DNA of 64,000 nt from Candidatus Marinacidobacterium sp. (GCA_965262645.1 CBDHFO010000017.1:1784582-1848581); one strand, 5' to 3'; numbered from the stretch's first letter, positions 12,249 through 53,875 are shown. The notes: a model not told the origin generated them from the letters alone. Translations and numbers: made by a program.

Positions 12249-14375
12249 TCAGGACAAGAAAGGACTCGGGCGCCCGTAGCTCAGGATCAGTAGTTCCTTC
12301 TTCGCGCGGGTCGCCGCGACGTAGAGCAGCGCGCGTTCCTTCGTCTCCGCCTTCTCCCGCTCAGCCGCATCCCCGGCGCCCGCGTAGGCCCTGGGCTGGG
12401 GCACGAGCCCGGCGTTCACGCTGGCGATCACGACGCGGTCGAATTCGAGTCCCTTGACGCGGTGCATGGTCGCGAGACGGACCCCCTCCTTCGTCCCGTC
12501 GTCCACCGTGTCCGGCCCCAGCCGGAAGACCGGCAGATCGCGATCCCGCAGCCCCCCCTCCAGCGAGTCGAGCTCCCGCTTCGTGGGAGCGACGATGCAC
12601 ACGCTGCGCAGGAGCCGCCCCTGCCCGCGCAGGCGCTCCAGGTACTGGACTATTCCCGCTGCCTGCTTCTCGCGGGACTCGAAGCGCTGGAGGAGCGGCT
12701 CGGGTCCGTGGGTCAGGGAACGGATCCGGTCGTCGTCCGCACCCCCGTCGAGATCGTCAATCGGACGGCCGCGGAGCAGGGTCGCGGCCCAGCCGCGGGT
12801 TTCCTCGGTGGTTCGGTAGTTGAGACGCAACTTGCGGGAGCGGCCGACGATGTTGATCCCACACCGGCTGAGTACGACCCGGCTCCGGCCGTAAATCCGC
12901 TGGTGCGCGTCCCCGACAAGGAACAGGTTGTCCTGACCTTCGGGGACGATGCGCCGCAATAGCCGGAACGCCTGCGCGCTCATGTCCTGGGCCTCGTCCA
13001 CGATGACCGACCGGTAGGCGAGTGCGGCTGCTCCGGCATCCAGCAGGCTGGCGGCGTCCCGGTAGGCGTCGTCCACCTCCTTCAGGCCGCGCTCGGCGAG
13101 CTGGGCGCGGTACTCCTCGAAGACGCGCCACACCTTGACCCGGGCGGCGCGGTTCAGCCGGGTGCCGCGCCCGACCCGCGAGACCCGCCGGTACTCCTCC
13201 TCCGTGGTCACCCCCCGGGCCAGCACTACCTGCTCCCACTCGTCCCCGTAGAACGCATCGGGGAACTCCAGCCCCGCGTCCTTCAGGTCGAGCGCGCGCT
13301 CCCAGGACTCGCCGTCCCGTCCGTACTGGACGCGGAAGTCGTAGCGCTGCCCCTGCAGGAAACCGCGAACCCAGCGGTCCAGGTTGGTCACCTCGATGCG
13401 GGCCTTTTCCTCCGGCGTGCAGATCAGGCGCAGGTTCTGCTCGATGTCCACTGCCAGGTTCCGGGTCCACGTCGTGAAGAGGATCCGGCCGCCGTCCGCC
13501 GCCTGCCGACCCAGTTGACGGGCGAGTTGACGGGCGAGCCAGCGCGCCCGGTGCATGGCGACCACCGTCTTGCCGGTGCCCGCGCCTCCGAGCACCCGCA
13601 CCGGGCCGTTCCAGTGGCGTTCCGCGAGCCGCCGCTGGGAGGGGTGGAGGAACACCCGCCAGCGCTCCAGCGGCGCATTCAGCATCGCCTCCAGCTCCAG
13701 TTGGTCGTGCGCGATGGCGAAGCGGGACTGTGAGTCGAGCCGGCCCAACGCCGCCCCGAAGTCGTCCGGGTCCACGGGGGACTCCGGCGCTTCCCGTTCG
13801 AGCACGAGCGCCTCGTAGGACTCGCCCGCCATGAGGAAGAAGAGCGCCTCGTAGGCTTCCACCGGCAGCCGAGCCTGCAAATCGTCAAGGTCCGGCTCAC
13901 TCCGGATCTCCCGAACCTCCGGCAGCATGGCCTCGGGAACGCCGAGCCGCACCAGCTCGCGGTCCCGCACCCCGTCGAACGCTTGTGGACCGCGGCCTGC
14001 GGCGGTCGGCGCCGCTTCCGGCGGCGCCGCGGACTGGGGCTCGTACACCTGGAGCGCCCCGGTCTCCCGGTTGATGCGGCATTCGTGGCGCTCCGCCCAG
14101 GCGTACGCCTCGTCGTGCTTGTCGGCCCAGAGCAGCAGGTGGACATTCCCCGTCGCGGGCTTCAGCACGATGGCGCGGTAGCCGCCGTCAATCCGCAGCG
14201 AGCGCATCGCCGCATCACGCGCCCCGTGGATGCGCTCGTAGTTGAGGCCGGTCGAGGTCGGGTTCGCGTTGAACTTCGTGATGAACGCGCGCACGCTGCG
14301 CTGCTGCGGGCGCGGCAGTTGCGCGAACGCCGACAGGAAGTCGGCGGACATGGCGATCTGGATGGCTTCCCGCAT
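12249..14375 (-). CDS. UvrD/REP-type superfamily-1 helicase with an N-terminal RelE/ParE-like domain of about 110 aa
   Basis: Motifs GGAGTGKT, VIVDEAQDMS, LNYRTT, MHRVKGLEFDRVVIA and LYVAATRAKKEL. N-terminus has ...SLRIDGGYRAIVLKPATGNVHLLLWADKHDEAY. GAGGAGGAG Shine-Dalgarno, and a GTGATG start overlapping the upstream TGA. Confidence 0.85.
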   Translation of the reverse strand: MREAIQIAMSADFLSAFAQLPRPQQRSVRAFITKFNANPTSTGLNYERIHGARDAAMRSLRIDGGYRAIVLKPATGNVHLLLWADKHDEAYAWAERHECRINRETGALQVYEPQSAAPPEAAPTAAGRGPQAFDGVRDRELVRLGVPEAMLPEVREIRSEPDLDDLQARLPVEAYEALFFLMAGESYEALVLEREAPESPVDPDDFGAALGRLDSQSRFAIAHDQLELEAMLNAPLERWRVFLHPSQRRLAERHWNGPVRVLGGAGTGKTVVAMHRARWLARQLARQLGRQAADGGRILFTTWTRNLAVDIEQNLRLICTPEEKARIEVTNLDRWVRGFLQGQRYDFRVQYGRDGESWERALDLKDAGLEFPDAFYGDEWEQVVLARGVTTEEEYRRVSRVGRGTRLNRAARVKVWRVFEEYRAQLAERGLKEVDDAYRDAASLLDAGAAALAYRSVIVDEAQDMSAQAFRLLRRIVPEGQDNLFLVGDAHQRIYGRSRVVLSRCGINIVGRSRKLRLNYRTTEETRGWAATLLRGRPIDDLDGGADDDRIRSLTHGPEPLLQRFESREKQAAGIVQYLERLRGQGRLLRSVCIVAPTKRELDSLEGGLRDRDLPVFRLGPDTVDDGTKEGVRLATMHRVKGLEFDRVVIASVNAGLVPQPRAYAGAGDAAEREKAETKERALLYVAATRAKKELLILSYGRPSPFLS

Positions 14376-17300
14376 CACTCCTCCTCAGAGAGGGCCGCGA
14401 CGATACCGGCCCCGCCCCCGGAGTGGTCCGGCCCGACGAACACCCGCCAGCCGGCTTCGCGAAACGCGCCCGCTCCGCCTTCTTGCTCGGAAAGCAGCAT
14501 GGCGACCTTCGCGCCGAGCCAGGCCGCCTCGGCCTCGGCGACCACCGTGCCCCCGTCACCCGCCAGTTCGAAGCCAACCTCCGGGACTGGCGCACCGCTG
14601 TCGGCGAGTGCCCGCAACAGCGGACGCGCCTCCGGCGCGGCCATCTCCACCGCCTCCCGCCACACCGCGTCGGCCACTTCCGGCTCGGAAGGCGGCTCGA
14701 GCTTCGGGCCGAACTCGGGGTAGCGCTGGCTTTCGATGCCGAGCCGGGTCGTCCAGAAGCCGCCGGGTAGGAATTGCAGGAGGTTGAACGCGCGGAGCGC
14801 GCCGTTCCAGGTTCGCCGGTAGTCCTTCGCACTCCGGCTCGCCTCGTCGTCGTGGAGGTGCAGGACCGCGACGGCCGCGTCCGGCTCCCCGCGCTCGACG
14901 GCGGTCAGGGGCAGGGCGAGGAAGAGGTCCACCGGCCCCGCCTCCTTGCCGATCCACTGGCCCCGCCCGGCAACGCACGCCGGCTCCGGCAACTCCGCCA
15001 GCCGGTCGCGCACCACTCCCGGCGACACTTTCTCCACCGCCGCCGCGAAGGCCGCCCGAAACTCCGGATCCTGCATCCGCTCGCGGTCGAAAAGCGCGCA
15101 GAGCCTCGTGAAGACGGCCCGCTTCCAGCGGAGCGGGTCCGGATCCCCGAGCCAGGCGACGAGCAGCGAGAGCGAAGACCCGCCGAGCCGGGAACGGAGC
15201 CCGCCGGTGTCCCAGCGCCCGTCGAGCGACTGCTGCAGCGGGTTCATATCGTGCTCCCCCAACTCCCCCGCCAGCAGGTCCGGCGCGTCGGCGCTCCCGC
15301 CGAAAGCTTCTTCGAGGTCGTACCAGGTGAGCGACCAGACAAGGTAGCCGGCGCCGGAGAGCGCCATCCGCTTTGCCGAGTCGTCGTCCGTCACGTCGCG
15401 GTGGTGTTCGAAGCCGTCCGTGAACACCGCCAGCGGCGGCGCTTCCGGCGTCCGGTGGGCCGGACGGATCAGGAAGTCGGGCCGGCACCGGATCCGGACG
15501 CCGTCGGCGGGGCCGAGTTCGACCTGCGGCTCGACGTACCAGGTGCGTTCCCCCACCCGCAGCACGTACCCGGGCCGGCCCCGGACCAGGTCGTGGCGGA
15601 CCCGGGCGCGCGGAGCGGTTCCCGCTTCCGGCGGCCTCCTGAGCGCCTCGATGAACCGCTCCTCCAGCCGGCTTTCGAGCAGCGCGTGGCTCCGCACCTC
15701 GTGGAGCCCTCGAACCTCCTGCAACGCGCCGGCGTGCGCCAGGATCAGATCGAGCACCTCGATGGCGGTCTTCCGCGAGGTCCGCGCCATGTCGCGGCTG
15801 CGGCGGTAGGCGAAGACGCAGCGGTGGCAGCCGTCCTTCGCCGGGTCGCGGGCGCAGACGCACGCGGCGAGGGCGTTCCGCGCCGTCCTGAACACGGAGA
15901 CCAGCTTCTCCGGCGCGGTCATCAACTCCTTCAGGTACCCCGTCCCGCCGGGCACGGTGTCGTAGAGCACCAGGTAGCCCTGGCGCGGCCCGCCGTCGGC
16001 TGTCGGGTATTCCGCGTTCTGCACCCGCAGGTGGTCAATGCGGCCCCCGAAGTGCCGCCGGAGCCCGAGCTCGAGCGCCGCGACGAAGGACACCGTGCGC
16101 CGGTCCGACCGGCCGCCGTCCGCGACCGGGAGCAGCATCCGGATCGCCTCGGACCGGAACTCGCGGTAGAGGTAGAGGCAGTCCGCGATGTCGCTGGCCC
16201 CGTTCCCGTCCGGCTCGCCGCGACCGCCCACCCCGCCGGAGCGTTCCTCGCGCCGCGCCGGACAGGACCGCGTGTGGCGCGGGCCATCGTCCCTCCGCCG
16301 CTGGACGGCGCCGCAGCGGCGGCAGATCCGGAATCCGGTGCGGGGCAGCTCGATCCCGGCGAAGGTCGTCCGCTGGCCGGCGTCATCGAGCCGGCCGAAG
16401 TTCAGGTCCCGGAAGGTTGCCGAGGCGACGTACTCGAAGCCGAAGACCGCCTCGGGCCGCTCCACCGCGAAGGCGCCGGCGACCGCGTCCGGATCCCAGT
16501 CGGTGAGCAGTTCGCGCGTGTAGAAGAGCGGTTCCCGGTCGTCGCGCTCGTCCATGATGCGGGTGCGGCGGTCGTCGCTGAGCGCGTGCACCACGCGGAG
16601 CCGCAGCATCTCGCGGAGCTGCCCCCGGTCCGCCCACATCGCGTCGCCGCAGCGAGGGCAGGCGCGGTGCTTGTCCCCACCCGCGACGTTCTCGCCGTAG
16701 GGGCACTCGCGGCAGAGCCGCCAGCGTTCGATCTCCGAGACGCGCACGTCCACCCGGTCAATGTCCACGTGCCGCCCGCCGGCGTAGAACTCGTTTTCCG
16801 GCGCGAACTCACTGAGCGCCGAGGCGGCGGGCCGCACGTACTCGTAGGTGTCGTGCTCGAAGTCGCGGCCCGTCGCTTCCTCGTCCGGGCGCCGCTCCCG
16901 GCCCCGGTAGATCACGGACTTCAGCGTCACCCCCTTCTCCGGGAAGGCGTAGTTGGGCAGCAGTCCCTCGTCGGTCAGGAAGTTGAACGTCGGCCGGCCG
17001 TTCATTTGCCGCAGCACCGATTGCAGCCCGCTCCGCTCCCGCCGCAGTTCCTTGACCTCCGCGTCGCCCGCCTCGTCCCGCGGCCCGCCGTCGAGCTTTC
17101 GGATCCGCCGCCCCAACAGACCGATCTCGGCCTTGAGCGCCTTCCGCTCGGCGACCACCTCCTCCAACCGATCCGCGATCTGCAGCACGCGCGAACCGCC
17201 GTCCTCCGCGTCCCCGAGCAGGAAGCGGCCCAGGGTTTCGCGCGAGGCGGGCTCCAGGTCGGGGGCGAACGCCGCGCCGAACGCTTCCAGAATCGAGGTG

Positions 17301-19111
17301 GCGCGGCGCTGCACGAAATCGAAGAAGGGGTAGGGGAACCGGTCCAACGCGCCCTTCTCGACGGCATCCAGGACGTCGCGGACTTGCCGCGGCACGGCCA
17401 GTTCGTCCACCCCGCTCGCCGACCAGCAGTCGAACGCGAACGCGGTGAGCTGGCGTTCGAGCACCGCCGAGGCGTTCAGGAACACCCCCGGCGGCTCGGT
17501 TCGGCCCGCCAGCATGTCGAGCGGTTCCGCGTAGAAGTAGAGGTCGTGCGGCCGGGCGGCGGCGATCGCCAGCGTGAAGGCGTTGCCGTCCCGGCGTCCT
17601 GCGCGCCCGCTGCGCTGGACGTAGTTCTCCGGCGCGGGCGGCGCGGAGGCGAGCGCCACGGTGGAGAGGTCGCCGATATCGATCCCGAGTTCCAGCGTCG
17701 GGGTCGCCGACAGCAGGTTCGGGTCCCAGGGCGCCGGGTCGGCCGCCGCGAAGCGCCGTTGCAGTTCCTCGCGCTGTTCGCGGGTGAGGAGCGCGGTGTG
17801 TTCGGCGGCCACTATCCGCCGCAGCGCGCTCCGCCGGTAGAGCTTGCCGAACCAGGTGGGTGCGGCGGGTTCGCAGCGGTCGTACGCGTCGCGTGAGCCC
17901 GGGTCAAGGCAGGGGAGCCCGAGCCAGAGATCCGCCTCGTCTTCCGGCACCACGAGCGGCCGGGACGCGCCCCCGCGCAGCACCCAGGCGCGCGGCGTCA
18001 CGAAAAAGCGTTCCGGGTCGAGCGCCCAGGCATGGGTGCCGCCGTGGGACGGCCCGACCGGGACCCGGCGCACGAGACCCGCGTCTTCAAGCGCCGCCAG
18101 CGCGTCGAGCAGCACTGCCGGGGCGTCCTGCATGGCGAGCGAGAGCGGCGGAAGCGCCAGCATCCTTTCGGTCCAGACGCGGTACCAGGAGCGCCGCGAC
18201 CCCCCGCCGGCGAGCGGTTCGAGTCCGTCGCCGGAGGCCCCGTCGGTCGGGAACACCGGGCGGGGTGAGCCCCGTCCGAATTCAGGGAGCGGGAGCTGTC
18301 CGCTCAGCCAGCGGATGGAGGCGCCGTTCCCGAGGAAACGGTCGTTCCCGTCGCTCCGGATCGCCCCGCGCTCCCGCAGCCGCCGCAGGATTCCGAGGAG
18401 CAACGCCCGCACCGTCTCCGCGGTGATCCCTCGCAGGCTGCCGAACTCTTCGCGAAGGCGGCGGTGCGCACTCGCGGCGGCGCGTTCGAAGCGCTCCCGG
18501 TCCACCCCGACGGCGGCGGCGCGGGTGCGCTCCAGCGTGCGGCCGATGGTGGACTTGTGGCCCAGCTCGGCGAGCGTTTCCCAGCGCAGGCGGTCCGCGA
18601 CCAGGTCCGGAAGGTCCGAGTCCGGCGGCAGCCGTCCGTCGCGCTGGAGCCGGGCGAAGTCCCGCAGCCAGTGGCGGTCCGGGGCGAGGAACTCCGCGAC
18701 GAAGCGCTCGGGGTCGAGCGCGCCGGGGTTCGCCTCCAGGTCCCGCCACCGCGCGACCACCGCGCCGTCGCCGCCCGCTGTCCCCGCGAGTTCCGCGAGC
18801 GAGATCCCGTCGCGCTCCGCGACCACCTGGGCGATGGCCGCCCGCGGGATGTTCGGCCAGGTGCGGGCGGCGATGAACCCCGCCCGGTGGGCGGCGTCCT
18901 GCACATTGTCGGAAAACGCGATGACCTTGCGGTCGTCGTTGTGGCGGGACGCGAACACCTGCCCCAGCGCGACGCTCAGCAGGTTGGACGCGCGCGCCCC
19001 GAAGATGAGGAGCGCCTCCCGCGCCCCGCAGAACGGGCAGTCCCGGCTCAGGCGGCGCACCGGCTTCCCGTCCCGGGGCCGGAAGGTCTCGGTGGCCTCG
19101 GGCAGGAACAC
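14375..19111 (-). CDS. C-terminal fragment of giant helicase: RecA2 lobe, DUF1998-like Zn-Cys clusters, PD-(D/E)xK/Vsr-like segment, unknown C-terminal domain
   Basis: QRSGRAGRRDGNAF (motif VI). Cys clusters CRECPYGENVAGGDKHRACPRCGD, CRRCGAV...SCP and CVCARDPAKDGCHRCVF. CRPDFLIRP...LAVFTDGFEHH. Same reading frame as 19136-20818, separated only by a TGA plus 8 sense codons. Confidence 0.8.
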   Translation of the reverse strand: MFLPEATETFRPRDGKPVRRLSRDCPFCGAREALLIFGARASNLLSVALGQVFASRHNDDRKVIAFSDNVQDAAHRAGFIAARTWPNIPRAAIAQVVAERDGISLAELAGTAGGDGAVVARWRDLEANPGALDPERFVAEFLAPDRHWLRDFARLQRDGRLPPDSDLPDLVADRLRWETLAELGHKSTIGRTLERTRAAAVGVDRERFERAAASAHRRLREEFGSLRGITAETVRALLLGILRRLRERGAIRSDGNDRFLGNGASIRWLSGQLPLPEFGRGSPRPVFPTDGASGDGLEPLAGGGSRRSWYRVWTERMLALPPLSLAMQDAPAVLLDALAALEDAGLVRRVPVGPSHGGTHAWALDPERFFVTPRAWVLRGGASRPLVVPEDEADLWLGLPCLDPGSRDAYDRCEPAAPTWFGKLYRRSALRRIVAAEHTALLTREQREELQRRFAAADPAPWDPNLLSATPTLELGIDIGDLSTVALASAPPAPENYVQRSGRAGRRDGNAFTLAIAAARPHDLYFYAEPLDMLAGRTEPPGVFLNASAVLERQLTAFAFDCWSASGVDELAVPRQVRDVLDAVEKGALDRFPYPFFDFVQRRATSILEAFGAAFAPDLEPASRETLGRFLLGDAEDGGSRVLQIADRLEEVVAERKALKAEIGLLGRRIRKLDGGPRDEAGDAEVKELRRERSGLQSVLRQMNGRPTFNFLTDEGLLPNYAFPEKGVTLKSVIYRGRERRPDEEATGRDFEHDTYEYVRPAASALSEFAPENEFYAGGRHVDIDRVDVRVSEIERWRLCRECPYGENVAGGDKHRACPRCGDAMWADRGQLREMLRLRVVHALSDDRRTRIMDERDDREPLFYTRELLTDWDPDAVAGAFAVERPEAVFGFEYVASATFRDLNFGRLDDAGQRTTFAGIELPRTGFRICRRCGAVQRRRDDGPRHTRSCPARREERSGGVGGRGEPDGNGASDIADCLYLYREFRSEAIRMLLPVADGGRSDRRTVSFVAALELGLRRHFGGRIDHLRVQNAEYPTADGGPRQGYLVLYDTVPGGTGYLKELMTAPEKLVSVFRTARNALAACVCARDPAKDGCHRCVFAYRRSRDMARTSRKTAIEVLDLILAHAGALQEVRGLHEVRSHALLESRLEERFIEALRRPPEAGTAPRARVRHDLVRGRPGYVLRVGERTWYVEPQVELGPADGVRIRCRPDFLIRPAHRTPEAPPLAVFTDGFEHHRDVTDDDSAKRMALSGAGYLVWSLTWYDLEEAFGGSADAPDLLAGELGEHDMNPLQQSLDGRWDTGGLRSRLGGSSLSLLVAWLGDPDPLRWKRAVFTRLCALFDRERMQDPEFRAAFAAAVEKVSPGVVRDRLAELPEPACVAGRGQWIGKEAGPVDLFLALPLTAVERGEPDAAVAVLHLHDDEASRSAKDYRRTWNGALRAFNLLQFLPGGFWTTRLGIESQRYPEFGPKLEPPSEPEVADAVWREAVEMAAPEARPLLRALADSGAPVPEVGFELAGDGGTVVAEAEAAWLGAKVAMLLSEQEGGAGAFREAGWRVFVGPDHSGGGAGIVAALSEEE

Positions 19112-19135
19112 CCGCGCCAGCCGGTCCGGCCTCCC

Positions 19136-20818
19136 TCAGTCGTCGCAGTCTTCGGTCCCGTGCCCCGCGCCGAGCCACCGGCAGTCGCAGAGCGTCTTCG
19201 GCTCGCCGCGCGCCCCGGCCGGCGGTTCGTCGGGGAAGAGGAAGACAACGTCCACGTCCCGCGCGAAGAAGCGGTTGTAGAAGACTTGCAGGTTCGCATC
19301 CAGCTTCCGGTCGCCGGCCCGCCGTACCGCGCCCCACCCCGTCCGGCGGCACTCGCGGCACTGGACGAGCGGCAGGTGGAGCGCCCCGTCTTCGGCGGCG
19401 AGGTCGTCGGAGTGCCGCAGCGCGTAGCGGGCGCCGCCGGGCGTCTCCACCGGCCGGACGCTGCACACCATCCGACGCAGCTCCCGGACCCAGAGGTGCA
19501 GCCCGACCCGGAGGAAGGGCTGGAGCCGCGCGCCTTCCCCGTCCCCCGCCCGGCGGCGCGCTGCCGAGATCAACGCACAGAGGCCGTTCAGCACTGCCTG
19601 CGCCTCGTCGTCGTCCGCGACCGGGAGGCTCGGCCGGAGCTGGTCCACCACCTCGGGGAGCGGGCGCGGGCGTCCGTCCAGCACCCGCAGCAGGTTCACG
19701 AAGGCGCTGTGCCCGGGCAGCCGCTCCGCGAGCGCGGCCCGCCACTCCTTGCCGCCGAAGTTCTCCGGCGCGACGGTCGGGAAAAACAGCGCGCCCACCG
19801 ACCGGAGGTAGTCCTCGCCGCTCCCGAAGCGGGCGGGGTCCGCCGCCCCGGCGACGTCCGGATGCGGCGTCAGCACGTCCGTGATCAGGCTTTCGCCGAG
19901 GAACTCGTCAATTCCCTGCCGCGACTCGCCCACGATGGCGTCCTCGTCGAAGTCCGCCTTGAAGACGGCGGACACGTAGTCGAGCAGCTTCCCCTCCTGC
20001 CTCGCCTCCCCGAGCGTCGCCGAGGTCCCCACGCAGATCAGATCCTCCCCCGCGCCGAGCCGCACCCGGAGCCGCCGGATGAGGCAGGCGAGGTCGGTCC
20101 CCTGCGCCCCGTCGAAGGTGTGCAGTTCGTCCACCACCAGGTAGCGCAGCGCGCCGGGCGCGTTCCGCCGCCAGAGCCGCTGGTCCGAGGGCCGGACCAG
20201 CAGGTAGTCCAGCATCTTGTAGTTCGTGAGCAGGATGTCCGGCGGCTGGTCGAGCAGGGTCTCCCGGTCCGTGATCACCCGCTCCGGCCCCATCCCCGTC
20301 GCCCGCGGCCCCGCCTTCGCGTCCTCCCCGATGAAGAGTCCCGCAGTCACCCGCCCCCGGAGCTCCGGATTCCGGTGGATCGTCGCCGCGATCCGCCCCG
20401 CCTGGTCCGTCGCCAGCGCGTTCATCGGGTAGATCAGGATCGCCTTGATCCCCGGCTTCCCCGCCTCCCGCCGGCAGTGGTCGAGCACCGGCCACAGGAA
20501 GCACTCCGTCTTCCCCGACCCCGTCCCGGTGGCCACCACCGTCGAGCGCCCGACTCCGCTCCTCAGCCGCTCCATCGCCCGCCGCTGGTGCCGGTAGGGC
20601 GTGAACCCGAGCGGAATCTCCGGAAACGGCTCCCCACCCTCCGCCGCCCGCTGGAACGGCAAGGCAACGGAGAGATATGGCCCCTTGACCAGGTTCTCCG
20701 GCGTCCCCAGGAAGTCGTCCACGACCCCCGCCAGAGCCGGATTCGACGGCCCGAACCCGGTCCGCAGAAAGTCCGAGAGCGCCGTGACCACCTCTGCGGC
20801 AACGGCGGACGGGATCAC
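19136..20818 (-). CDS. N-terminal fragment of giant helicase: DExH RecA1 lobe plus Zn-finger insertion
   Basis: ATGTGSGKTECF (motif I), LVVDELHTFDG (motif II, DELH), GTSATLG (motif III) and CRECRRTGWG. Ends at the in-frame TGA 19136-19138. Confidence 0.8.
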   Translation of the reverse strand: MIPSAVAAEVVTALSDFLRTGFGPSNPALAGVVDDFLGTPENLVKGPYLSVALPFQRAAEGGEPFPEIPLGFTPYRHQRRAMERLRSGVGRSTVVATGTGSGKTECFLWPVLDHCRREAGKPGIKAILIYPMNALATDQAGRIAATIHRNPELRGRVTAGLFIGEDAKAGPRATGMGPERVITDRETLLDQPPDILLTNYKMLDYLLVRPSDQRLWRRNAPGALRYLVVDELHTFDGAQGTDLACLIRRLRVRLGAGEDLICVGTSATLGEARQEGKLLDYVSAVFKADFDEDAIVGESRQGIDEFLGESLITDVLTPHPDVAGAADPARFGSGEDYLRSVGALFFPTVAPENFGGKEWRAALAERLPGHSAFVNLLRVLDGRPRPLPEVVDQLRPSLPVADDDEAQAVLNGLCALISAARRRAGDGEGARLQPFLRVGLHLWVRELRRMVCSVRPVETPGGARYALRHSDDLAAEDGALHLPLVQCRECRRTGWGAVRRAGDRKLDANLQVFYNRFFARDVDVVFLFPDEPPAGARGEPKTLCDCRWLGAGHGTEDCDD

Positions 20819-20878: not shown

Positions 20879-21307
20879 TTACTTATGCAGCGCCACTCTC
20901 ATGTGTCGGGCCGCGTCGGTTGCGTTGAGAATCCGCATCCCGCGATAGGGATGGAGCGCCAGCAGGTCTCCGTCTCCACTAACGATCAGGTCCGCGCCAG
21001 CGGCGATTCCGGTGGCGATCACGACATCGTCGTCAGGGTCCGACGGAACAGTTCGCGGGACGGATTGCAGGGCGACGAACTCTGATGCGAGAGCGTACCG
21101 GGCCGCCAACTGGAGGGGAGTCTTCCGGTGTTGCAGAAATTTCGGCCGGAATTTCGGCCTGCCCAAGACCTCGACGAGTTCGGCCATCAGGCGGCGACTC
21201 GTGAACAACGTAACCCTTCGGTCGTCCGCGAGATCCAGAATGAGCTGCGGGTTTCCGCCCCAGAGCAAGCCCGAGACGACAGTGTTCGTGTCAAGAACCA
21301 GTCGCAC
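20879..21307 (-). CDS. PIN-domain toxin (VapC-like)
   Basis: LVLDTNTVVSGLL and DDDVVIATGIAAGADLIVSGDGDLL PIN signatures. Overlaps the upstream small antitoxin ORF. Confidence 0.8.
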   Translation of the reverse strand: MRLVLDTNTVVSGLLWGGNPQLILDLADDRRVTLFTSRRLMAELVEVLGRPKFRPKFLQHRKTPLQLAARYALASEFVALQSVPRTVPSDPDDDVVIATGIAAGADLIVSGDGDLLALHPYRGMRILNATDAARHMRVALHK

Positions 21308-21533
21308 GCCGCCGCCTTTCAGCGCGGACGGCGTTCACTTCTGCCTGGATCTCCTCCATCGTCATGGGTGGGATGTTGTCCGCTGCCATTCCCCGGGCGT
21401 CCCGAAGAAGTTCCCCGAGGTTAAACCGGCGGAGCTGCTCCCGAAAGATCGCCTCCACCGCGTCCGGAGCGAGAAGACCAGCCTTCTCGATCTCCCTCTC
21501 AAGATCCTCCGGCAGTTCCAGAGTGACAGCCAT
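21291..21533 (-). CDS. putative antitoxin partner of the PIN toxin
   Basis: 80-aa acidic/helical ORF overlapping the PIN gene start by 17 nt. Typical type II TA arrangement. Confidence 0.6.
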   Translation of the reverse strand: MAVTLELPEDLEREIEKAGLLAPDAVEAIFREQLRRFNLGELLRDARGMAADNIPPMTMEEIQAEVNAVRAERRRRATGS

Positions 21534-21606
21534 GATGTTCCCCGCGCCCCGCAGCCGAGGCGAACTCGCATCCTACCACCGCCCCCACCCCGGCCGGAGC
21601 GCCCCG

Positions 21607-21650
21607 GGAACGCCGGTGTTCACACCGGCACCGTCCGCCGAAGGCGGACG
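21607..21650. repeat. REP-like hairpin pair
   Basis: CCGGTGTTCACACCGG (21613-21628) and GTCCGCCGAAGGCGGAC (21633-21649). Confidence 0.5.
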
Positions 21651-21741
21651 AAACGCACAACTCTCCTACTCCCGGATGACGCTGCCGGCTTGGACCGCCG
21701 ACCAAGGCCTTCGGCGCTGTCCAGCTCCGGGAGCTCCAACC

Positions 21742-22353
21742 TCAGTGCTCGTTCGGAGAGCGGCCCCACGCTTCCAGACAGCTCAGGAGGAAGTCCACGG
21801 GAAGTGCTGCCGGATTCGAATAGCGCCCGTACGCGTTCAGACCCGGCATGGCGCAAAGCCAGCCCGTCTCACCCCGATTGCCGAAGAGGACATGAACCAC
21901 CGCCTGGGTTCGGGGAGCCTTGAAGGACAAGGAAATCTCTCCGTCCGGCGTCGGGTACACGTTCGGCGCCAATGGTTGGTGCGCAAGGGCACGCAGCGCC
22001 CTCCGCGCCGCTGACCGCGCCTCGTCGTCCACCGGAGGGAGCCCGTCCTCCTCGATCTCCTCATCAATGCCGTCCAGTTCCATCAGGGCTTCCGGCAGCC
22101 AACCTGCAACTGCCCCAACCTTCCCTCGCCCATCGGCGCGAGCCGCCACACCCCTCTTGCCCTTCGGCATCGCTGACGCGAGAGCACCCCTTAGAGCGGC
22201 CTCCAGGGCGGCAACCGCTTCGGGATTCACGGCGTCCGCCCCGCCCGCAACCTTCCCCGGATCATCCGGCAGGGTGATGTGCAGCGTCGTCACGACAGTC
22301 TTCTCGGCCTGCAAGAGCCAACCGGCCAATGTAGCACCGACCCGCCACACCAA
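21742..22353 (-). CDS. hypothetical protein (start uncertain)
   Basis: The C-terminal half reads like real protein (YPTPDGEISLSFKAPRTQAVVHVLFGNRGETGWLCAMPGLNAYGRY). The track start is TTG. No family motif recognised. Confidence 0.4.
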   Translation of the reverse strand: MVWRVGATLAGWLLQAEKTVVTTLHITLPDDPGKVAGGADAVNPEAVAALEAALRGALASAMPKGKRGVAARADGRGKVGAVAGWLPEALMELDGIDEEIEEDGLPPVDDEARSAARRALRALAHQPLAPNVYPTPDGEISLSFKAPRTQAVVHVLFGNRGETGWLCAMPGLNAYGRYSNPAALPVDFLLSCLEAWGRSPNEH

Positions 22354-22539
22354 CGACCGCGCCCCGTACCGCCCGCGAAGCCACGTCCAGGCGGGGGCCG
22401 CCGACCGAAAACGCAGCCACGCCGGAACACCGAGAGCCGCCGTCGGGGGTCAGAGACCGCCGACTTCCAGGTCGGCCCAGCCTCCCGGTGGGGGCCGCGC
22501 GGGAGCACGACCCCTCCCGGACAGCGCGACGCTACGCGT

Positions 22540-23385
22540 TCAAGCATCGCCGTCCGTCGGTTCAAGCCTTGGGGGCACCAGGTAGCCCGGCACGGAGATG
22601 TGGTATGTGGGATGAAACGTCCCGCCTTCGACAAGCGCCCGCGGCCCGGAACCGAACGCGACCCGCCCAGCGTCGAGATACTTTCGCCAACTGTGCCCGT
22701 GCCGGTCCGCAAAGACGAAGAACAGTCGGCGGACCTTCACGCTTCGGCAGGCTGCCAGCAGCGTCATGAGCGGTTCCGGCCGCATGGACACCAGCCCTTC
22801 AAAGATCTTGTCGAGATGGTCGAAGCTAGCGTTGCCGGGCAGTTCGTCCAGCGCCTCGAGGATCGCCCGTTCGGGAGACGAAGACCGGACGGGCCAGCGC
22901 CACACCTCGACCGCCAGTCCGCCAGCTCCCGCCGCGCCGCTGGCTTCCGTGATGCCGACAGGATCGTTTCCGAACAGCTTGCATTGGCGCAGGACCATCC
23001 GTTCCCGCATCGGCAGGCGTTTCAGCCAGGACGGCACGTCGCCGTAGAGATGGACGCGAGGCCTGCCCCCGAGGCTCAGATAGTGCACATGGCCGGCAAG
23101 ATCGAGGGCGCTCTCGCCGCCCAGGTGCACGTCGTAGCCCATGAGCCGTTGCAGCGAGACGAGGACGACTTCCCAGGACGCCCCACTCACCGCGACGTTT
23201 GCCGGCAGCGGACGGCGATAGACCCCGCGCAGCACCCGCTCAAGCCATCCCCGAGCGACGTAGCCGTGGATGGACTTGGGGTCGATTCCACGGGCTTTGA
23301 GCCATGGCGTATCGACCATGAAACCGGGCGGGACCGTGTCGAGTAGAGGCTTTAGCCGAGGCTCTCTTTGATGGCTCATAGCCAC
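22540..23385 (-). CDS. AbiEi-family (type IV TA antitoxin-like) transcriptional regulator, no cognate AbiEii adjacent
   Basis: N-terminal wHTH-like GFMVDTPWLKARGIDPKSIHGYVARGWLERVLRGVYRRP and ...SPERAILEALDELP, typical of AbiEi_4-type proteins (recalled, not searched). Confidence 0.65.
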   Translation of the reverse strand: MAMSHQREPRLKPLLDTVPPGFMVDTPWLKARGIDPKSIHGYVARGWLERVLRGVYRRPLPANVAVSGASWEVVLVSLQRLMGYDVHLGGESALDLAGHVHYLSLGGRPRVHLYGDVPSWLKRLPMRERMVLRQCKLFGNDPVGITEASGAAGAGGLAVEVWRWPVRSSSPERAILEALDELPGNASFDHLDKIFEGLVSMRPEPLMTLLAACRSVKVRRLFFVFADRHGHSWRKYLDAGRVAFGSGPRALVEGGTFHPTYHISVPGYLVPPRLEPTDGDA

Positions 23386-23634
23386 TAAATTACAAAACTA
23401 TCGCACTAGAGTCCAGAAGTTCTTTCCACAAGGTCCGATTGCATGGCTAACAACCATCTAAGTTGGCAAGTCGACACAGCATGCGGCTTCCTGCTGCCCA
23501 CCGCCAGGCCGCACTCGCAGTCCGCTGAGCGACCCCCTACCCCAGACAGCACCGCCGGCAACGGACCGCCGACCTCCGGTCGGCATCGCGCGGGAGCGCG
23601 AAACCGGCTTGGATGGCGCTGCGCTCTGTGAACG

Positions 23635-24546
23635 TCAATACGCCTCCACGCTGATCCAGCCCCGATCGAGGAAATGGCGGTACACCATCTCCCGACTCAG
23701 GTTGAGATCCTCGGCAACAGCAATACGGACAGCTGCCGACTCGCTGGGCTGTTTATCCGCCATCAGCCGATCCAGCTCCGCTGGCGGTAGCAACAGGTCG
23801 GCGGCAAAGCGGTTACAGCGGATCTCCACGCTCCGGCTCGCCGTCGGAAGGCGATCCAGTACGTCGGCGGGCACCGGATCGAGGCCGCTGGTCTCGCGGA
23901 GCAGGTGTCCGAGCTCGTGGAACAGGGTGAAGATCTGCCGCGTGGCGCTCCGCGAGCTGTTCACGTAGATGACCGGCAGCTCAGGGTCGTAGATCGAGAA
24001 GCCGCAGTAGTCGTCCTCGCGGAACGCGTCCTTGAAGACGAACACCCCGGCCTCGTAGAGCGCGTCGCGCCACTCCTTGAACGCCGTCGGCGTGTCGGTC
24101 CAGCCACGTTGATCTTCGAGGGAAACTCCGAGGATTGCCCGTACTTCCTCCGGATCGGGTGCGCTATCTCGAAACGCCGGCAAAATGGGCTGTTCAACCG
24201 GCCTGCGGCCCTCGGTGAGCTCGGTGAGGCTGATCTGGCACGCCTGCGCCTTGCGAACTAGCAGGTGCATGCGGGTCGGCAGTCCCGCGAACTCGCGCTC
24301 CGGCAGGGTCCGGAACGAGCGCGACGGCTCCGGTACGTCGGGTGGCTCCGGAAAGAACAGGACGGACACGGGCACTTTGAAGCGATCCGCCACGGATTCC
24401 AACTGGACGTAGGTGGGGGCCTTGCCGTGGGACTCCCAGGCGTGAATGTCACGGAAATGCAGCTCCGCCGCTTCGAGCGAGTAACCAGCGCGCTCACGCG
24501 CCCAGCCGATGAGATCGGGGTTGATCGCCAAGCGGTCGGAGGTCAT
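23635..24546 (-). CDS. XRE-type HTH fused to ImmA/IrrE (M78) metallopeptidase
   Basis: Start MTSDRL at 24546. HEXXH motif in LFHELGHLL. The N-terminus resembles a Cro/C1 HTH. Confidence 0.8.
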   Translation of the reverse strand: MTSDRLAINPDLIGWARERAGYSLEAAELHFRDIHAWESHGKAPTYVQLESVADRFKVPVSVLFFPEPPDVPEPSRSFRTLPEREFAGLPTRMHLLVRKAQACQISLTELTEGRRPVEQPILPAFRDSAPDPEEVRAILGVSLEDQRGWTDTPTAFKEWRDALYEAGVFVFKDAFREDDYCGFSIYDPELPVIYVNSSRSATRQIFTLFHELGHLLRETSGLDPVPADVLDRLPTASRSVEIRCNRFAADLLLPPAELDRLMADKQPSESAAVRIAVAEDLNLSREMVYRHFLDRGWISVEAY

Positions 24547-24999
24547 GGGGTGGGTGCCGGTCGGCGCGGAGGGTAGCGGAACGCGACTACCCCTCAAGTG
24601 ACCGGAACCCGCCCAGACGCCCGGACGACCGAGGCCACAGTCCCGCCATGCCAACGCGCCTGGACTCTCTCCTCAACCCCGGACTGCGCTGCCGGCGTGG
24701 ACCGCCGGACCTCTGGTCGGCACCGCGCACCTCTCGGCCCCGTATCGCGCCCCCACCAGAAGCGCGCTGCCCTCCTGGCAGGCGTGGCGCTCCGATGTCC
24801 TATGACTTCGACGGAGCCGTTCGCAGGCATTCCAGGCGAAAGTAGCGATGCGATACGGTTTGAGAGGACGGCTGTGACAAGGGCGCAGCGGTTCGACGTG
24901 CGTCCCGCGCAGGTTCAGGACTGCCGGAAGCGGGGAGAGCGGGATCCGATGGAGTGCGGCGCCCTCTGGTTCGCACGAGTCGGTCCGTCGCTCATGTCG

Positions 25000-25031
25000 T
25001 ATATTGGACCGCTCCCAGACGCCTGCGTCTG
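25000..25031 (+). promoter_or_regulatory. candidate -10 box plus palindromic operator upstream of the Zn-ribbon/methyltransferase module
   Basis: TATATT at 25000-25005, conspicuous in a G+C-rich genome. Perfect inverted repeat CAGACGC-ct-GCGTCTG at 25016-25031, about 40 nt upstream of the ATG at 25070. Confidence 0.3.
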
Positions 25032-25069
25032 CAGGCACACGTTCGGACGAGAGGAGTGCCCCGATCATC

Positions 25070-25327
25070 ATGGCAGATAACAGATTGCAGCTATTCTCAG
25101 TTCCAGCGACCTTTCTGGACGGAACAACGGTGGAAGTCAGAGCGGAGGGAAACAATGCGGCGTGGCATTGTCCGTGCGGCACCCCGCTGCCGTTGGTGGG
25201 GCGCTGCTATTACCAATTCGGACAGGACTGCCATACGGTGTGTCCGGACTGCGGACGGACTTACAGGGTTCACAAGGATGTCGCCACGAAACGAACGAAG
25301 TCTGTGGAAGAGGTCCCGCCGCTGTGA
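25070..25327 (+). CDS. small Zn-ribbon protein
   Basis: MADNRLQLF... with CPC...CPDC cysteines. GAGGAG upstream. The stop overlaps the next ORF's start (GTGA). Confidence 0.5.
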   Translation: MADNRLQLFSVPATFLDGTTVEVRAEGNNAAWHCPCGTPLPLVGRCYYQFGQDCHTVCPDCGRTYRVHKDVATKRTKSVEEVPPL

Positions 25328-25572
25328 CCCCCCCTGATGACTGCCCCTTGTGCGGGCGCAGACTGATCGAAGCCCACTGGATTTCCGAATACAGTCAGTT
25401 TCTCTTCACCTACCCTTCCTGCACCACGTTCACGATCCCCCCGGAACTGGACAAATCGTTCAGAACTGAGTTTAGGGGCGATCCCGACATTCCGCGCCTT
25501 TCCCGCTACCTGCGTGAGGCCGGAGAGGACGACAACAGGGAGATCACTGTCGAGTCGTGGCGCACTGTGTAG
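25324..25572 (+). CDS. small hypothetical protein with an N-terminal CPLCG knuckle
   Basis: GTG at 25324 overlaps the previous TGA. 82 codons. Ends 51 nt before the methyltransferase ATG. Confidence 0.35.
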   Translation: MTPPDDCPLCGRRLIEAHWISEYSQFLFTYPSCTTFTIPPELDKSFRTEFRGDPDIPRLSRYLREAGEDDNREITVESWRTV

Positions 25573-25623
25573 GACAACAATTGTCGCTTGTACTTGGGAT
25601 CGCGACTTGGTACGGTATGTGCT

Positions 25624-26838
25624 ATGGCGACAATCACCCTCCAGCGCAACGTCCAATTCCTGTATGAGGAACACCTAGCCCGGGCCGAGGCTCAGGCCCT
25701 CGGGTGTGGTCTGTGGGATCGCGACGAGGGCAGCCTGCGGCAGGTGCGAGTGGATGTCAATGGGGAGTCCTCTGCTGTGCTGCGCCGAGCGGCCTACGTG
25801 GGAGCCCTCGACGGGGAAGACACGATCTATGAGCAGTTGATCCGGCCCAAGTTCCAGGGTGGGGCTTTCAACAGGACCCGCTCCGTAAATCAGTACCTGA
25901 CCCATTGGATCTATCCGTATCGCGGGAAGTTCCACCCCCAGATGGTCCGTGCGCTCCTCAACATCCTGGGTGTCACGCGGGGATCTCTCGTGCTGGATCC
26001 GCAGGTTGGGAGCGGGACTACCGCACTGGAGGCATCGCTGCTCGGAATCCGGTGTATTGGCGTCGATATCTCCCCACTGTGCGTCCTGCTGACCCGGGTG
26101 AAGACCCGATCCGTCGAGGCGGTGGGCCCGCTCCGGGAGCGCGTAGAAGCGCTCCTAGATAACGAAACGCTAGATCCTGCCGACGCTTCGCTCGCCCTCG
26201 ACGATAACCCGCTCGTCGCCGACTTTGTCCAGGTGGCGCGGATGACGACTCTGAGTGACGTGTCGCGGCGGAAGCGGGACGGGCATACCTGGTTCCGGAG
26301 AAACCTGTCGGCCATGCTGGAATCTGTAGAAGCCCATGCCCAGGCCCTCAAGGTGTTCGACATCCGCCCTGGTCAGGTTTCCGCCATCCGGGGAGACGCG
26401 CGAAATCTGCGCGCCTCGGGAATCGAAGATGCGACGATCGACGCAGTTGTCACGTCGCCTCCCTATTCGATCGCACTGGACTACGTGAAGAACGACGAGC
26501 ACGCGCTGGAGGCCCTTGGGATAGATCTGGAAGCCCTCCGGATGGAAATGACGGGAGTTCGCGGCCAAGGGCCCAAGGAAAAAATGACCCTCTACAACGA
26601 AGACATACAGACGATGTTCTGTGAGGTAGCGCGAGTATTGAAACCCGGTGCGAAGGCCGCGTTCGTAGTCGGCGACGCTACCGTTGATGGGCGGGAGTTG
26701 ACCACGACCAAGGATATGAAGACCTGGGCAACGAGCGCCGGCCTAGAGTTCGAGGGGGAGGTTCAGAAGGTGATCTTCGGCCTCTACAGTACGATGAAGG
26801 ACGAAATGATCCTGTTGTTCAAGAAGCCCCCTCAATAG
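25624..26838 (+). CDS. DNA methyltransferase (N6-adenine or N4-cytosine, SPPY type)
   Basis: Motif I VLDPQVGSGTTALEA precedes motif IV VVTSPPYSIALDY. ATG at 25624 preferred over the track's TTG at 25588. Confidence 0.8.
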   Translation: MATITLQRNVQFLYEEHLARAEAQALGCGLWDRDEGSLRQVRVDVNGESSAVLRRAAYVGALDGEDTIYEQLIRPKFQGGAFNRTRSVNQYLTHWIYPYRGKFHPQMVRALLNILGVTRGSLVLDPQVGSGTTALEASLLGIRCIGVDISPLCVLLTRVKTRSVEAVGPLRERVEALLDNETLDPADASLALDDNPLVADFVQVARMTTLSDVSRRKRDGHTWFRRNLSAMLESVEAHAQALKVFDIRPGQVSAIRGDARNLRASGIEDATIDAVVTSPPYSIALDYVKNDEHALEALGIDLEALRMEMTGVRGQGPKEKMTLYNEDIQTMFCEVARVLKPGAKAAFVVGDATVDGRELTTTKDMKTWATSAGLEFEGEVQKVIFGLYSTMKDEMILLFKKPPQ

Positions 26839-27218
26839 GGCGGCAGCCTCTTCACGTGAATGCAGCGATGCCTGCGTCGCGGTCTAGGAGAGCGTCACGT
26901 GCCAGTGGCGCTCGATGCTCCAGGAGGACGTGAACGGCGTGACTAGCGCTACATCTAGCACCCCTTGGAGAATGCACGTATCGGGGTCCGACGCAGGAAG
27001 CACCGCGGCGTGCGAGGACGATGAGACGGCCCTTGGGGCGGCAAGGAAGCTGGAACATAGTCCGGACGTGCCGCACGATGGCCCAGAGGCGAGCCGGCTG
27101 GCGGAATGACGCGAACACAAGAACGACAAACCCTGATGTCAGCCGAAGTGTTGCGTCGTGCCGGAATCCTTGGGCTCGATGCTCTCCGACCCGTGTCGTC
27201 GGTTCTCGCCCGAGCGGA

Positions 27219-28310
27219 TTACAGAGTGCCGCTGACGATCTTGTCGTGCAGTATCAACATCGCGAGCGCGTCTAGCAGCACGAGGTACTTCAGGGCCATG
27301 TCCCTCGTCTCGAAGTCGGTAAAGGCTCCGTGGACGATACCGTGCCGGTTTATCTCGTGTCTGGGGTCGTCGATTTTGGCAGTGTCCCTCCAGAATGTCC
27401 CCGTCTTGAGAAAGCCGAGTATCAATTCAAGGACAGGCGCTGGAAATAAAAGAATACTCCGCGAAAACACAAGCGCCCCGAGTTGACTCACCATGTCCTT
27501 GAATCCGCTCTCGGGCGACTCACCGGCGACTAACAAGTAGTCCTTCACAATGCCTTCAAACTGGGGCACGAGCACGTAAATCGAACTAATCCAGTCGCCC
27601 TCAAGATACTCGTCAACTGCCTTCTGGATGTAGCGCAGCCTGCCGGGAAAGAACTGCGCCTCTTTCCACAGCGCCATCTTTTGTTGCCAAAACTCGACGT
27701 TGTACGTGGCAGACACGGTGTCTGCGAATTCCGACTCTTGCAGCTTTCCAGGGTTTCGGTGCGCATAAGCAATGACATTCGGAAAATAGCCGGGAGCCGG
27801 CGGCCAGTTGATGGTCGCCAGTTGTCGAAACTTGTCCACCGGTTTGACCGCCTCGAGAAACTCTCGCATACGGACGAAGTCCGCAATCGGTACCGGCATC
27901 AGTTGCCGGATTTCGTCAGACTCGCTCTGGGTAAAGTCGAAGGGGATCTGAAAATTCAAGAAAGCCGAACGAAGCAGGAAATACGATCGGGGCATCCCGT
28001 CCACAATCGGCGGCCCTAGCACGGCAGAGTCAACGTCGATGTCGTCGAGGTGCACCGTCTGCCCCACCTTCATGGCCTTCCGCGGCTTGACACTTACCCT
28101 GAGTTGTACTTGCTCGTTCAGCTCGACCGAATGGCCGGGCCCAGGCTGAACAACCCTGAATTGGTGAACATGCAACGGAAGGCCGGCGGCCGCGATTGCG
28201 CCTGACCTAACACGTCTACCGATCTCCGGCAGCACGAAGATCTGCAGCATTTGTGAGACAGGGCGATACAGCATGATTTCGCTCTGCGCTGGCTCCATGG
28301 CTTCGGTCAT
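27219..28310 (-). CDS. hypothetical protein with a C-terminal HEPN/Abi_C-like Rx4H motif
   Basis: 363 aa, lower G+C. ...DDPRHEINRHGIVHGAFTDFE fits Rx4HG of HEPN nucleases. The N-terminal region of about 250 aa is unrecognised. Confidence 0.55.
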   Translation of the reverse strand: MTEAMEPAQSEIMLYRPVSQMLQIFVLPEIGRRVRSGAIAAAGLPLHVHQFRVVQPGPGHSVELNEQVQLRVSVKPRKAMKVGQTVHLDDIDVDSAVLGPPIVDGMPRSYFLLRSAFLNFQIPFDFTQSESDEIRQLMPVPIADFVRMREFLEAVKPVDKFRQLATINWPPAPGYFPNVIAYAHRNPGKLQESEFADTVSATYNVEFWQQKMALWKEAQFFPGRLRYIQKAVDEYLEGDWISSIYVLVPQFEGIVKDYLLVAGESPESGFKDMVSQLGALVFSRSILLFPAPVLELILGFLKTGTFWRDTAKIDDPRHEINRHGIVHGAFTDFETRDMALKYLVLLDALAMLILHDKIVSGTL

Positions 28311-28648
28311 GTCAGGCCCGCACTCACGGCCGACACGCCCGTTCCTGTAAGCCGTTCAGTGTTTCCTGTTGAAACGGACCGCAATCGGCCTGTGAGCCAA
28401 CCCGCCCAGATGGAAGTGGGTCGCATCCCGGACGCGAGCACCTTTGGGAGCCGCTGGCCATCTTGTTGAGTCACTGGACGCGGGACTTGATCGCCCAGAC
28501 GCGCGACACGCAGACCGCGAGCGCGGAGTGTAGCCAACTTCGACTGCTGCCTAGCTTCTTTTGCCACAGATGCTGCCGCTCCCGGGCCAGTCTCTCCGGA
28601 CAGTACAAGCTTCCGGTTCTCGTTCCGAAGCCTGTTCACCAGCGTCAC
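28307..28648 (-). CDS. possible small ORF coupled (ATGA) to the HEPN-like gene
   Basis: GTG start. The stop overlaps the ATG at 28310. The sequence is Arg/Ala/Gly-rich and low-complexity, so it may be spurious. Confidence 0.25.
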   Translation of the reverse strand: MTLVNRLRNENRKLVLSGETGPGAAASVAKEARQQSKLATLRARGLRVARLGDQVPRPVTQQDGQRLPKVLASGMRPTSIWAGWLTGRLRSVSTGNTERLTGTGVSAVSAGLT

Positions 28649-28717
28649 AACCCTACGCCACCTCTCGAAGGAACTCTACGGGAGCGCATTTCCCAGACGA
28701 GGACACGCCACGCCAAT

Positions 28718-35094: not shown

Positions 35095-35098
35095 CTAG
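35095..35098. repeat. target-site duplication CTAG (left copy)
   Basis: CTAG directly abuts the IS inverted repeat. Identical CTAG at 36738-36741. The duplication could be read as CTAGGAG, because the IR begins with GAG. Confidence 0.7.
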
Positions 35099-36737: not shown

Positions 36738-36741
36738 CTAG
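36738..36741. repeat. target-site duplication CTAG (right copy)
   Basis: See 35095-35098. Confidence 0.7.
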
Positions 36742-53561: not shown

Positions 53562-53616
53562 GATCGGGTTTGGCAGCCGTATCGCCTCCGAGGCACCGCG
53601 GAGGGGCCGTCCACGG

Positions 53617-53702: not shown

Positions 53703-53875
53703 GTGCCGGGAATTCGCGCGCCAGGACGAGGTGGACATTCGCGTTGATCCGTTGCTTGCAATCGCCCTTCCGAGTCGTCATCCTGACTCGTCGAGCCTTG
53801 CGGTCCGCGGCGAGCGCCGTCGTGGCGCCCGCGGCTGCCAGGACCACCGGATCCTGACGGAAAGGAAACGAAGCC

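Follow-up and report, generated by a model that had tools for sequence, protein, structure and literature searches.

In a stretch of 64,000 nucleotides (nt) from Candidatus Marinacidobacterium sp. (GCA_965262645.1, CBDHFO010000017.1:1784582-1848581; hereafter the window, with positions counted from its first letter), the gene for a giant DUF1998 helicase lies end to end with that for a UvrD-like helicase (12249-20818). We are highly confident that this pair represents armC and armD of ARMADA type II, with armA and armB upstream on the same strand, and that the copy is genetically dead or dying. ARMADA type II is a four-gene anti-phage system (armABCD) that has been named and experimentally validated (Bell et al. 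2025, PMC12458937; mBio 2026, PMC13463889). In E. coli its defence is direct and non-abortive, proceeding without cell death (Bell et al. 2025, PMC12458937), and protection is lost once any of armA, armB, armC and armD is deleted (PMC12458937; PMC13463889). The pair had been proposed as a new two-helicase module, on the ground that no named system joins a DUF1998 helicase to a superfamily 1 (SF1) UvrD-type helicase; ARMADA type II is that very pairing, and the original prediction had itself named a match to an existing subtype as what would speak against novelty. Judged by its sequence, the pair is a member of an already described family and not a new module.

Coding frames in the G+C-rich window (0.57-0.74 per 2 kb) were chosen by third-position G+C and then scanned with Pfam and PADLOC; the PADLOC-DB release used (v2.0.0, 2023) is older than ARMADA and therefore holds no ARMADA models. 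In the order of transcription on the minus strand, the locus comprises an SNF2 helicase gene, a short open reading frame (ORF), an insertion sequence (IS, on the plus strand), a methyltransferase gene, a block of lower G+C, the giant helicase gene and the UvrD-like gene, which we assign as follows (protein lengths in amino acids, aa).

37043..40012, minus strand: armA, BrxHII/RapA-like SNF2 helicase, 989 aa, apparently intact (Pfam, PADLOC and E. coli alignment)
36742..37056, minus strand: armB 5' fragment, the first ~105 codons, severed by the IS (frame joining after removal of the IS)
35095..36741 including the CTAG copies (element ~35099-36737), plus strand: IS within armB (transposase ORF 35192..36565)
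30509..35098, minus strand: armB 3' part (ORF 30509..35029, 1506 aa), PglX-like/type IIG-like N6-adenine methyltransferase
20879..30496, mixed strands: embedded cargo block of ~9.7 kb between armB and armC (G+C 0.57-0.67)
19139..20818, minus strand: armC codons 1-560, with the N-terminal region, RecA1 (GSGKTE, DELH), the BrxA-like-insert region and the start of the Zn-binding module
19136..19138, minus strand: in-frame TGA at armC codon 561, a nonsense codon at the invariant CxxC cysteine
14375..19135, minus strand: armC codons 562-2147, with RecA2, OB-CON-DUF1998 (MZB) and the C-terminal nuclease-like domains
12249..14378, minus strand: armD, with a predicted RelE-like domain (~8-112), a helical linker and a GajB-like UvrD SF1 helicase (~245-709); its start overlaps the armC stop

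The assignment is carried by comparison with E. coli. The closest known system is the ARMADA II of E. coli NCTC 12900 / EDL933 O-island 172 (PMC12458937; PMC13463889). By using an Enterobacter locus from our genome scan as a bridge, we located the corresponding locus in 526 of 5426 complete E. coli genomes; the one fetched consists of druE followed by genes of 952, 1643, 2113 and 704 aa, with an overlap of 1 nt between armB and armC and an ATGA overlap between armC and armD. The window's ArmA is 52% identical to E. coli ArmA over residues 13-983, the repaired ArmB 48% over 10-1628 (in an alignment that starts at residue 2), ArmC 38% over 2191 columns (1385 bits, residue 1 to 2136) and ArmD 48% over 7-708 (43% in the N-terminal 240 residues). 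The ArmC homology runs through the C-terminal nuclease-like region, and since the same protein reaches just 111+105 bits against DruE, the product of the adjoining E. coli gene, and this in the helicase cores only, we place it in the ArmC lineage and not with DruE or DrmA.

The catalytic residues tell the same story. E. coli ARMADA II needs the ATPase (Walker) motifs of ArmA, ArmC and ArmD together with the NPPW motif of ArmB, as was established with mutants at ArmA K136/D236, ArmC K110/D234, ArmD K266/D454 and ArmB N971/G605 (Bell et al. 2025, PMC12458937). In the fetched locus these positions fall on exactly those residues, and all of them are conserved in the window (the Walker A Lys and Walker B Asp of ArmA, NPPW and GxG of ArmB, K103 and D230 of ArmC, K270 and D461 of ArmD). 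The domain content and order of the window are likewise those given for ARMADA II (Bell et al. 2025, PMC12458937), and the armA-armB-armC-armD succession on a single strand is kept, with an insert of 9.7 kb between armB and armC.

Profile searches matched ArmA to SNF2-rel_dom and Helicase_C in Pfam, and to DrmD (3.7e-97) and BrxHII (1.7e-59) in PADLOC. For the 3' part of ArmB they returned Eco57I/N6_Mtase (Pfam) together with REase_MTase_IIG (865 bits) and DrmMI (178 bits), the best-matching PADLOC profile extending ~125-180 positions further than the ORF at the N-terminus. In ArmC the first fragment holds the DEAD domain and the second Helicase_C and MZB (DUF1998), with DruE3 (6.5e-53, codons 1-560) and DruE1 (3.2e-45, codons 562-2147) as PADLOC matches, while ArmD matched UvrD-helicase/UvrD_C in Pfam and GajB in PADLOC (1.5e-26). 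The 2023 PADLOC models miss ARMADA II and mislabel parts of it as DruE and GajB.

Pfam, run at E up to 5, gave nothing useful for the ArmD N-terminus, the ArmC C-terminus or the cargo proteins without matches. The first two regions were approached by structure modelling (AlphaFold2, AF2) and Foldseek searches of the PDB. The model of ArmD residues 1-250 (38-row alignment; mean predicted local distance difference test, pLDDT, 70.7) has an alpha-alpha-beta4-alpha-beta2 core. Its matches at ranks 1-41 were all RelE/YoeB/YafQ/ParE/HigB-type toxins, and within the top 50 the sole exception was rank 42, an unrelated insecticidal toxin; the best E was 5e-4, and target-normalised template-modelling (TM) scores reached 0.74. 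The modelling thus confirmed the predicted RelE-like domain at the N-terminus of ArmD. In the literature definition, the C-terminus of ArmC bears a PD-(D/E)xK nuclease of the Vsr type, behind which there are often inactive EEP and Vsr domains (PMC12458937). The model of the last 458 aa of ArmC (pLDDT 87) comprises three alpha/beta modules and one helical module, and this query, which probably spans several domains, found no significant match in the PDB; the weak ones were PD-(D/E)xK enzymes (BsmI, TnsA, R2 endonuclease), all with E > 0.03. A profile of the first C-terminal domain gave chance matches only against PDB sequences. The region does contain an invariant pattern, RPDF...DGF.xH...D.S.KR, that by our own reading resembles the Vsr/DUF559 motif.

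Gene neighbourhoods were surveyed in 80 loci from many bacterial groups, collected by a scan with the ArmC alignment (one genome per species), in which the four genes were placed by tblastn with the window proteins. The loci derive from, among others, Acidobacteriota, Gemmatimonadota (Longimicrobiales), Proteobacteria, Clostridia, Bacilli, Cyanobacteria, Actinomycetota, Bacteroidota, Verrucomicrobia and Thermotogae; the closest relatives in the genome collection were Vicinamibacterales metagenome-assembled genomes (59%), and near-identical contigs came from ENA metagenome assemblies. Homologues of ArmC and ArmD run to thousands of full-length sequences each, the former as a single chain of 2100-2200 aa. 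Where the ArmC C-terminus was complete and at least 2.5 kb of sequence lay downstream (n = 53), an ArmD homologue followed on the same strand in 52 loci, within 200 bp in 45 of them. The adjacency of armC and armD, which the original prediction had singled out for a neighbourhood check, is therefore far above chance, and it is so because the pair belongs to a named system. Of the 50 loci whose upstream sequence reached 10 kb, 43 had ArmB there on the same strand, and the A-B-C-D order held in 31 of the 32 loci that showed all four genes.

At the junction itself, the giant gene (2147 codons, 20818..14375, minus strand, DEAD/DUF1998) ends in a TGA (14377-14375, minus strand) that sits within the GTGATG opening the 709-aa ORF at 12249..14378. 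Both the GTG (14378-14376) and the ATG (14375-14373) are possible starts in frame with that ORF, and GAGGAGGAG stands immediately upstream. Coordinates and frames thus agree with the arrangement first described, in which the TGA lay inside GTGATG behind GAGGAGGAG. The stop/start overlap recurs in relatives (1 nt in the metagenomic loci L001 and L083/L084, ATGA in E. coli), and both the overlap and its conservation are consistent with the single transcript and coupled translation proposed for the pair.

We also observed inserts of 1.8-7.5 kb between armC and armD in the nearest relatives from the genome collection (L002 16558-24068, L009 16498-20225, L048 16804-18594, L075 16405-19789, L033 16273-18468); depending on the locus, they contain transposase/IstB genes of the IS21 type, a serine recombinase, an ABC ATPase, AbiEii or unknown ORFs. 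The coupling of the two genes is therefore not inviolable.

Several points weigh against the ARMADA II assignment or against parts of it. The published description stresses a strict, compact gene order, and here armB and armC stand 9.7 kb apart. No armB was seen within 10 kb upstream of armC in L001, a near-identical relative (armC 98.4% identical in DNA), nor in 6 of the 50 loci with that much upstream sequence. The Vsr-type label for the ArmC C-terminus was not reproduced by our searches and rests on the literature and the motif. The premature TGA in armC, a single-base matter, could be an assembly or sequencing error, in which case armC would be intact; and the role assigned to each Arm protein is, even in E. 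coli, inferred and not demonstrated.

The missing armB genes also speak for the idea that armC-armD is an independent two-helicase module, working without the SNF2 and methyltransferase genes, which had been raised as one of two options and which we consider highly improbable. The tight coupling and conservation of the pair would suit such a module, as would the block from AbiEi to armD that the window and L001 share in one piece, its breakpoint falling at a 43-bp repeat. Cargo of up to at least 9 kb is, however, common at the armB-armC junction, so that a flank of 10 kb can miss armB; the gene lies upstream on the same strand in the great majority of loci, both armA and armB are present in the window itself, and in E. 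coli protection is abolished whichever of the four genes is deleted (PMC12458937; PMC13463889), which makes an independent system unlikely. The other option, a displaced DrmAB-like effector of the SNF2-methyltransferase genes, was right in part. The pair is on the same strand as the SNF2 (37043..40012) and methyltransferase (30509..35029) genes, as had been stated, and belongs with them in one system; the likeness to DrmAB did not hold, since the YprA helicase is a single chain of the ARMADA/Druantia branch and its DruE matches far exceed those to DrmA.

The state of the locus is that of a system in decay. The IS is bounded by 21-nt inverted repeats (35095-35115 and 36721-36741, 90% complementary, with CTAG at both outer ends) and by 4-bp CTAG target duplications (35095-35098 and 36738-36741); its transposase carries DDE_Tnp_1 and DUF772 (Pfam), and the element is present once in the window. 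Deletion of 35099-36741 (the IS plus one CTAG) restores an open armB frame of 1633 codons from the ATG at 37056, the 5' fragment of which has a translation that starts MPPRSSKPAAAFVGIHNENEFYSHHYLSEIF. As armB is split by the IS, its PglX-like methyltransferase character holds as ancestry and not as an intact gene. In L083/L084, which are syntenic with the window at 90% identity, both ArmB (1630 aa) and ArmC (2133 aa) are intact.

The original prediction had spoken of a repaired pair and thereby implied an interrupted giant gene, which is what we found: the ORFs 19136..20818 and 14375..19111 share one frame and are parted by one in-frame TGA at 19136-19138, which separates RecA1 from RecA2. L001 has TGC at this codon (561), and the two armC genes otherwise differ by base changes of which 65 are synonymous and 35 non-synonymous, which points to a single C-to-A nonsense change and not to a general collapse of the frame.

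A functional TGA (selenocysteine, programmed readthrough, or a deliberate DrmA/DrmB-like split) is a reading to which we assign a slimmer chance still than to the independent module. It could appeal to the replacement of a Cys codon, a classic Cys/Sec position, to the GGGAGG directly after the TGA with a GTG 25 nt downstream, and to the existence of split YprA helicases in DISARM. The codon-561 column is, however, Cys (the second of the CxxC) in 120 of 120 homologues, with no TGA elsewhere at that column, and RNA downstream of the TGA folds no better than shuffled sequence (z = -0.97), offering no SECIS-like support; together with the TGC of L001, this led us to reject selenocysteine and readthrough. 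As for reinitiation at a split, the spacing of ~18 nt from GGGAGG to GTG is too long for a normal ribosome-binding site, the break falls inside the zinc module between RecA1 and RecA2 and not at a DrmA/DrmB boundary, and armB of the same locus is disrupted too.

Least probable of all is a Druantia system in which a DruE-type helicase has an unusual partner: DruE1 and DruE3 are the best PADLOC matches of both armC fragments (E 1e-45 to 1e-53), but these matches are limited to the helicase cores and come from a database without ARMADA models, and in comparison with the E. coli proteins the window's ArmC yields 111+105 bits with DruE and 1385 bits end to end with ArmC. Among the neighbouring genes, the PADLOC scan gave no match to the DruH model, nor any to DruA-D or DruM/F/G, and the Pfam and PADLOC scans found no PLD domain, in line with the earlier statement that no DruH-like or PLD-like gene is adjacent; Pfam found no PLD domain in the helicase either, and Druantia type III was accordingly rejected.

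We thus return to ARMADA II as the identity of the locus and consider what its parts would do. In an intact system, ArmA and ArmB would form a methylation-linked module for telling self from non-self, as suggested by their domain content and by analogy with DISARM class 1 and BREX. ArmC would be the effector, a YprA-type single-stranded DNA translocase with a DUF1998 canopy, whose C-terminal PD-(D/E)xK-type nuclease would attack phage DNA; ArmD would be made in step with it through the stop/start overlap and may act as a second motor, or as a sensor, with a RelE-fold domain. In the window copy none of this would operate, as ArmB and ArmC presumably cannot be made whole. Because each of the four genes is required in E. 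coli and armB and armC are disrupted (armA and armD remain open), the copy is most likely inactive. It offers a natural example of a large defence system decaying, with an IS in the methyltransferase gene and a nonsense codon at a zinc-ligand cysteine of the effector.

The block between armB and armC contains the following genes.

28718..30496, minus strand: ABC/OLD-like ATPase, 592 aa, AAA_21/AAA_15, with weak NsnB, Old, GajA, AriA and HEC-01A matches
27219..28310, minus strand: 363-aa protein without Pfam or PADLOC match
25588..26838, plus strand: type II DNA methylase
23635..24654, minus strand: IrrE/M78 metallopeptidase, 339 aa, RmrA/CapP-like by PADLOC
22540..23385, minus strand: AbiEi (AbiEi_3-type antitoxin/regulator)
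21742..22353, minus strand: 203-aa protein without Pfam or PADLOC match
ending near 21294, minus strand: small antitoxin-like ORF, ~85-93 aa
20879..21307, minus strand: PIN toxin

The ATPase gene begins 12 nt past the armB stop and is followed by that of the 363-aa protein, and together they (27219-30496) make a candidate embedded two-gene cassette of an ABC ATPase with an unknown effector. Further along, the IrrE/M78 peptidase gene adjoins the oppositely oriented type II methylase (23635-26838), and AbiEi is followed by the 203-aa protein (21742-23385) in place of an AbiEii nucleotidyltransferase. This last pair is kept beside armC in relatives (98% identity in L001, 54% in L083/L084), and the 203-aa protein may be a different toxin partner of AbiEi.

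Relatives carry different cargo at the same junction; in L083/L084, which share the downstream housekeeping genes, it amounts to ~7 kb and is partly different. In the 46 loci that showed where armB ends as well as where armC starts, the gap was at most 250 bp in 24 and 0.95-9.2 kb in 22, with a G+C below that of the whole locus in 20 of these 22 and with ORFs mostly co-oriented with the arm genes. Among 70 gap ORFs, AAA_21/AAA_15 ABC ATPases were commonest, followed by GmrSD, dynamin-like, AbiEii, Uma2, patatin, Schlafen/AlbA_2 and SIR2 families; by PADLOC the commonest were mad3, AriA, HEC-01A, Old, GajA, LeoBC, AbiLi and PtuA. Embedded defence genes ('guilt by embedding') have been described in Hma, BREX, DISARM and type I restriction-modification (R-M) loci (Payne et al. 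2024, bioRxiv 10.1101/2024.01.29.577857), and our literature search found no mention of embedding in ARMADA in Bell et al. or in the later papers searched. The armB-armC junction may be a preferred docking site (hotspot) for embedded, co-oriented defence cassettes, a proposal on which we stand evenly divided; this apparent hotspot, with its uncharacterised passengers, is the only, modest, new point to come from the locus. ARMADA II hosts embedded cassettes as Hma, BREX, DISARM and type I R-M do, here mainly at one junction, where a search for new defence genes would cost little. The window's 363-aa and 203-aa proteins could be such genes, co-regulated with ARMADA or backing it up. Where the embedded cargo is long, a locus will escape tools that look for armABCD as a compact operon.

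A 43-bp direct repeat (11259-11301 and 23581-23623, 90.7% identical; shorter copy at 21604-21633) lies just past the stop of a 158-aa ORF and just past the IrrE stop. The homology between the window and L001 (98.1% over 11.4 kb) begins at ~23608, within the repeat, and runs precisely to the stop of armD (12249); the repeat thus marks a recombination breakpoint bounding a block of AbiEi, the 203-aa gene, antitoxin/PIN, armC and armD, and could mark how cassettes are exchanged. L083/L084 possess, besides a full AbiEi upstream of armC, a 67-aa AbiEi C-terminal fragment (91% identical) downstream of armD (18774-18974), which suggests a repeat-mediated rearrangement around armCD.

Outside the system, armD is followed by housekeeping genes (Na/Ca exchanger, dehydrogenase, aminotransferase), and an RND efflux pump lies upstream of the locus. 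The 158-aa ORF just downstream of armD (11431-11904, minus strand), which had no hits, is 66% identical to a paralogue that lies just upstream of armA (40950-41615, minus strand), so that the ARMADA island, 29 kb in all, stands between two related genes of direct orientation. Elsewhere in the window (48843-53738, minus strand), a gamma-glutamyltranspeptidase gene lies between two paralogous genes for DUF4143/AAA_14 ATPases (48843..50105 and 52305..53738).

Set beside known systems, the locus is closest to E. coli ARMADA II, with which it shares the four proteins, their order and strand, the catalytic motifs, the overlap of the armC stop with the armD start, and an ArmD that joins a RelE-like N-terminus to a UvrD core. 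It differs in the IS in armB, the premature TGA in armC, the 9.7 kb of defence cargo between these genes, the absence of an adjacent Druantia III or Zorya II, and its high-G+C, uncultured host. With DISARM class 1 (DrmD, DrmMI, DrmA, DrmB, DrmC) it has in common an SNF2 helicase, a large adenine methyltransferase and a YprA-family DUF1998 helicase, ArmA matching DrmD models and ArmB DrmMI models; but helicase and DUF1998 stand in one chain of 2100-2200 aa and not in DrmA/DrmB, a gene for the PLD nuclease DrmC is absent, a UvrD-like ArmD is added, and DrmA matches are 5e-10 or weaker, so that this class was rejected. Druantia type III (DruH-DruE) offers a giant YprA-family helicase-nuclease of the same branch, with DruE giving the best 2023-era PADLOC matches, whereas the window has no DruH, a C-terminus that is not PLD, and ArmA, ArmB and ArmD as partners. 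The helicase core of ArmD resembles GajB, whose models it matches, yet it bears a RelE-fold N-terminal domain and is coupled to ArmC and not to the OLD-family nuclease GajA; Gabija was rejected, as ArmD is orthologous over its full length to its E. coli namesake, and as the ATPase with the weak GajA match lies 14 kb off in separate cargo. Lastly, the co-oriented cassettes between genes of a multi-gene system recall those nested within Hma, BREX, DISARM and type I R-M loci and draw on the same families (ABC ATPases of the HEC-01, GajA and AriA kinds, GmrSD and others), whereas in ARMADA II the cargo concentrates at a single junction, between armB and armC.

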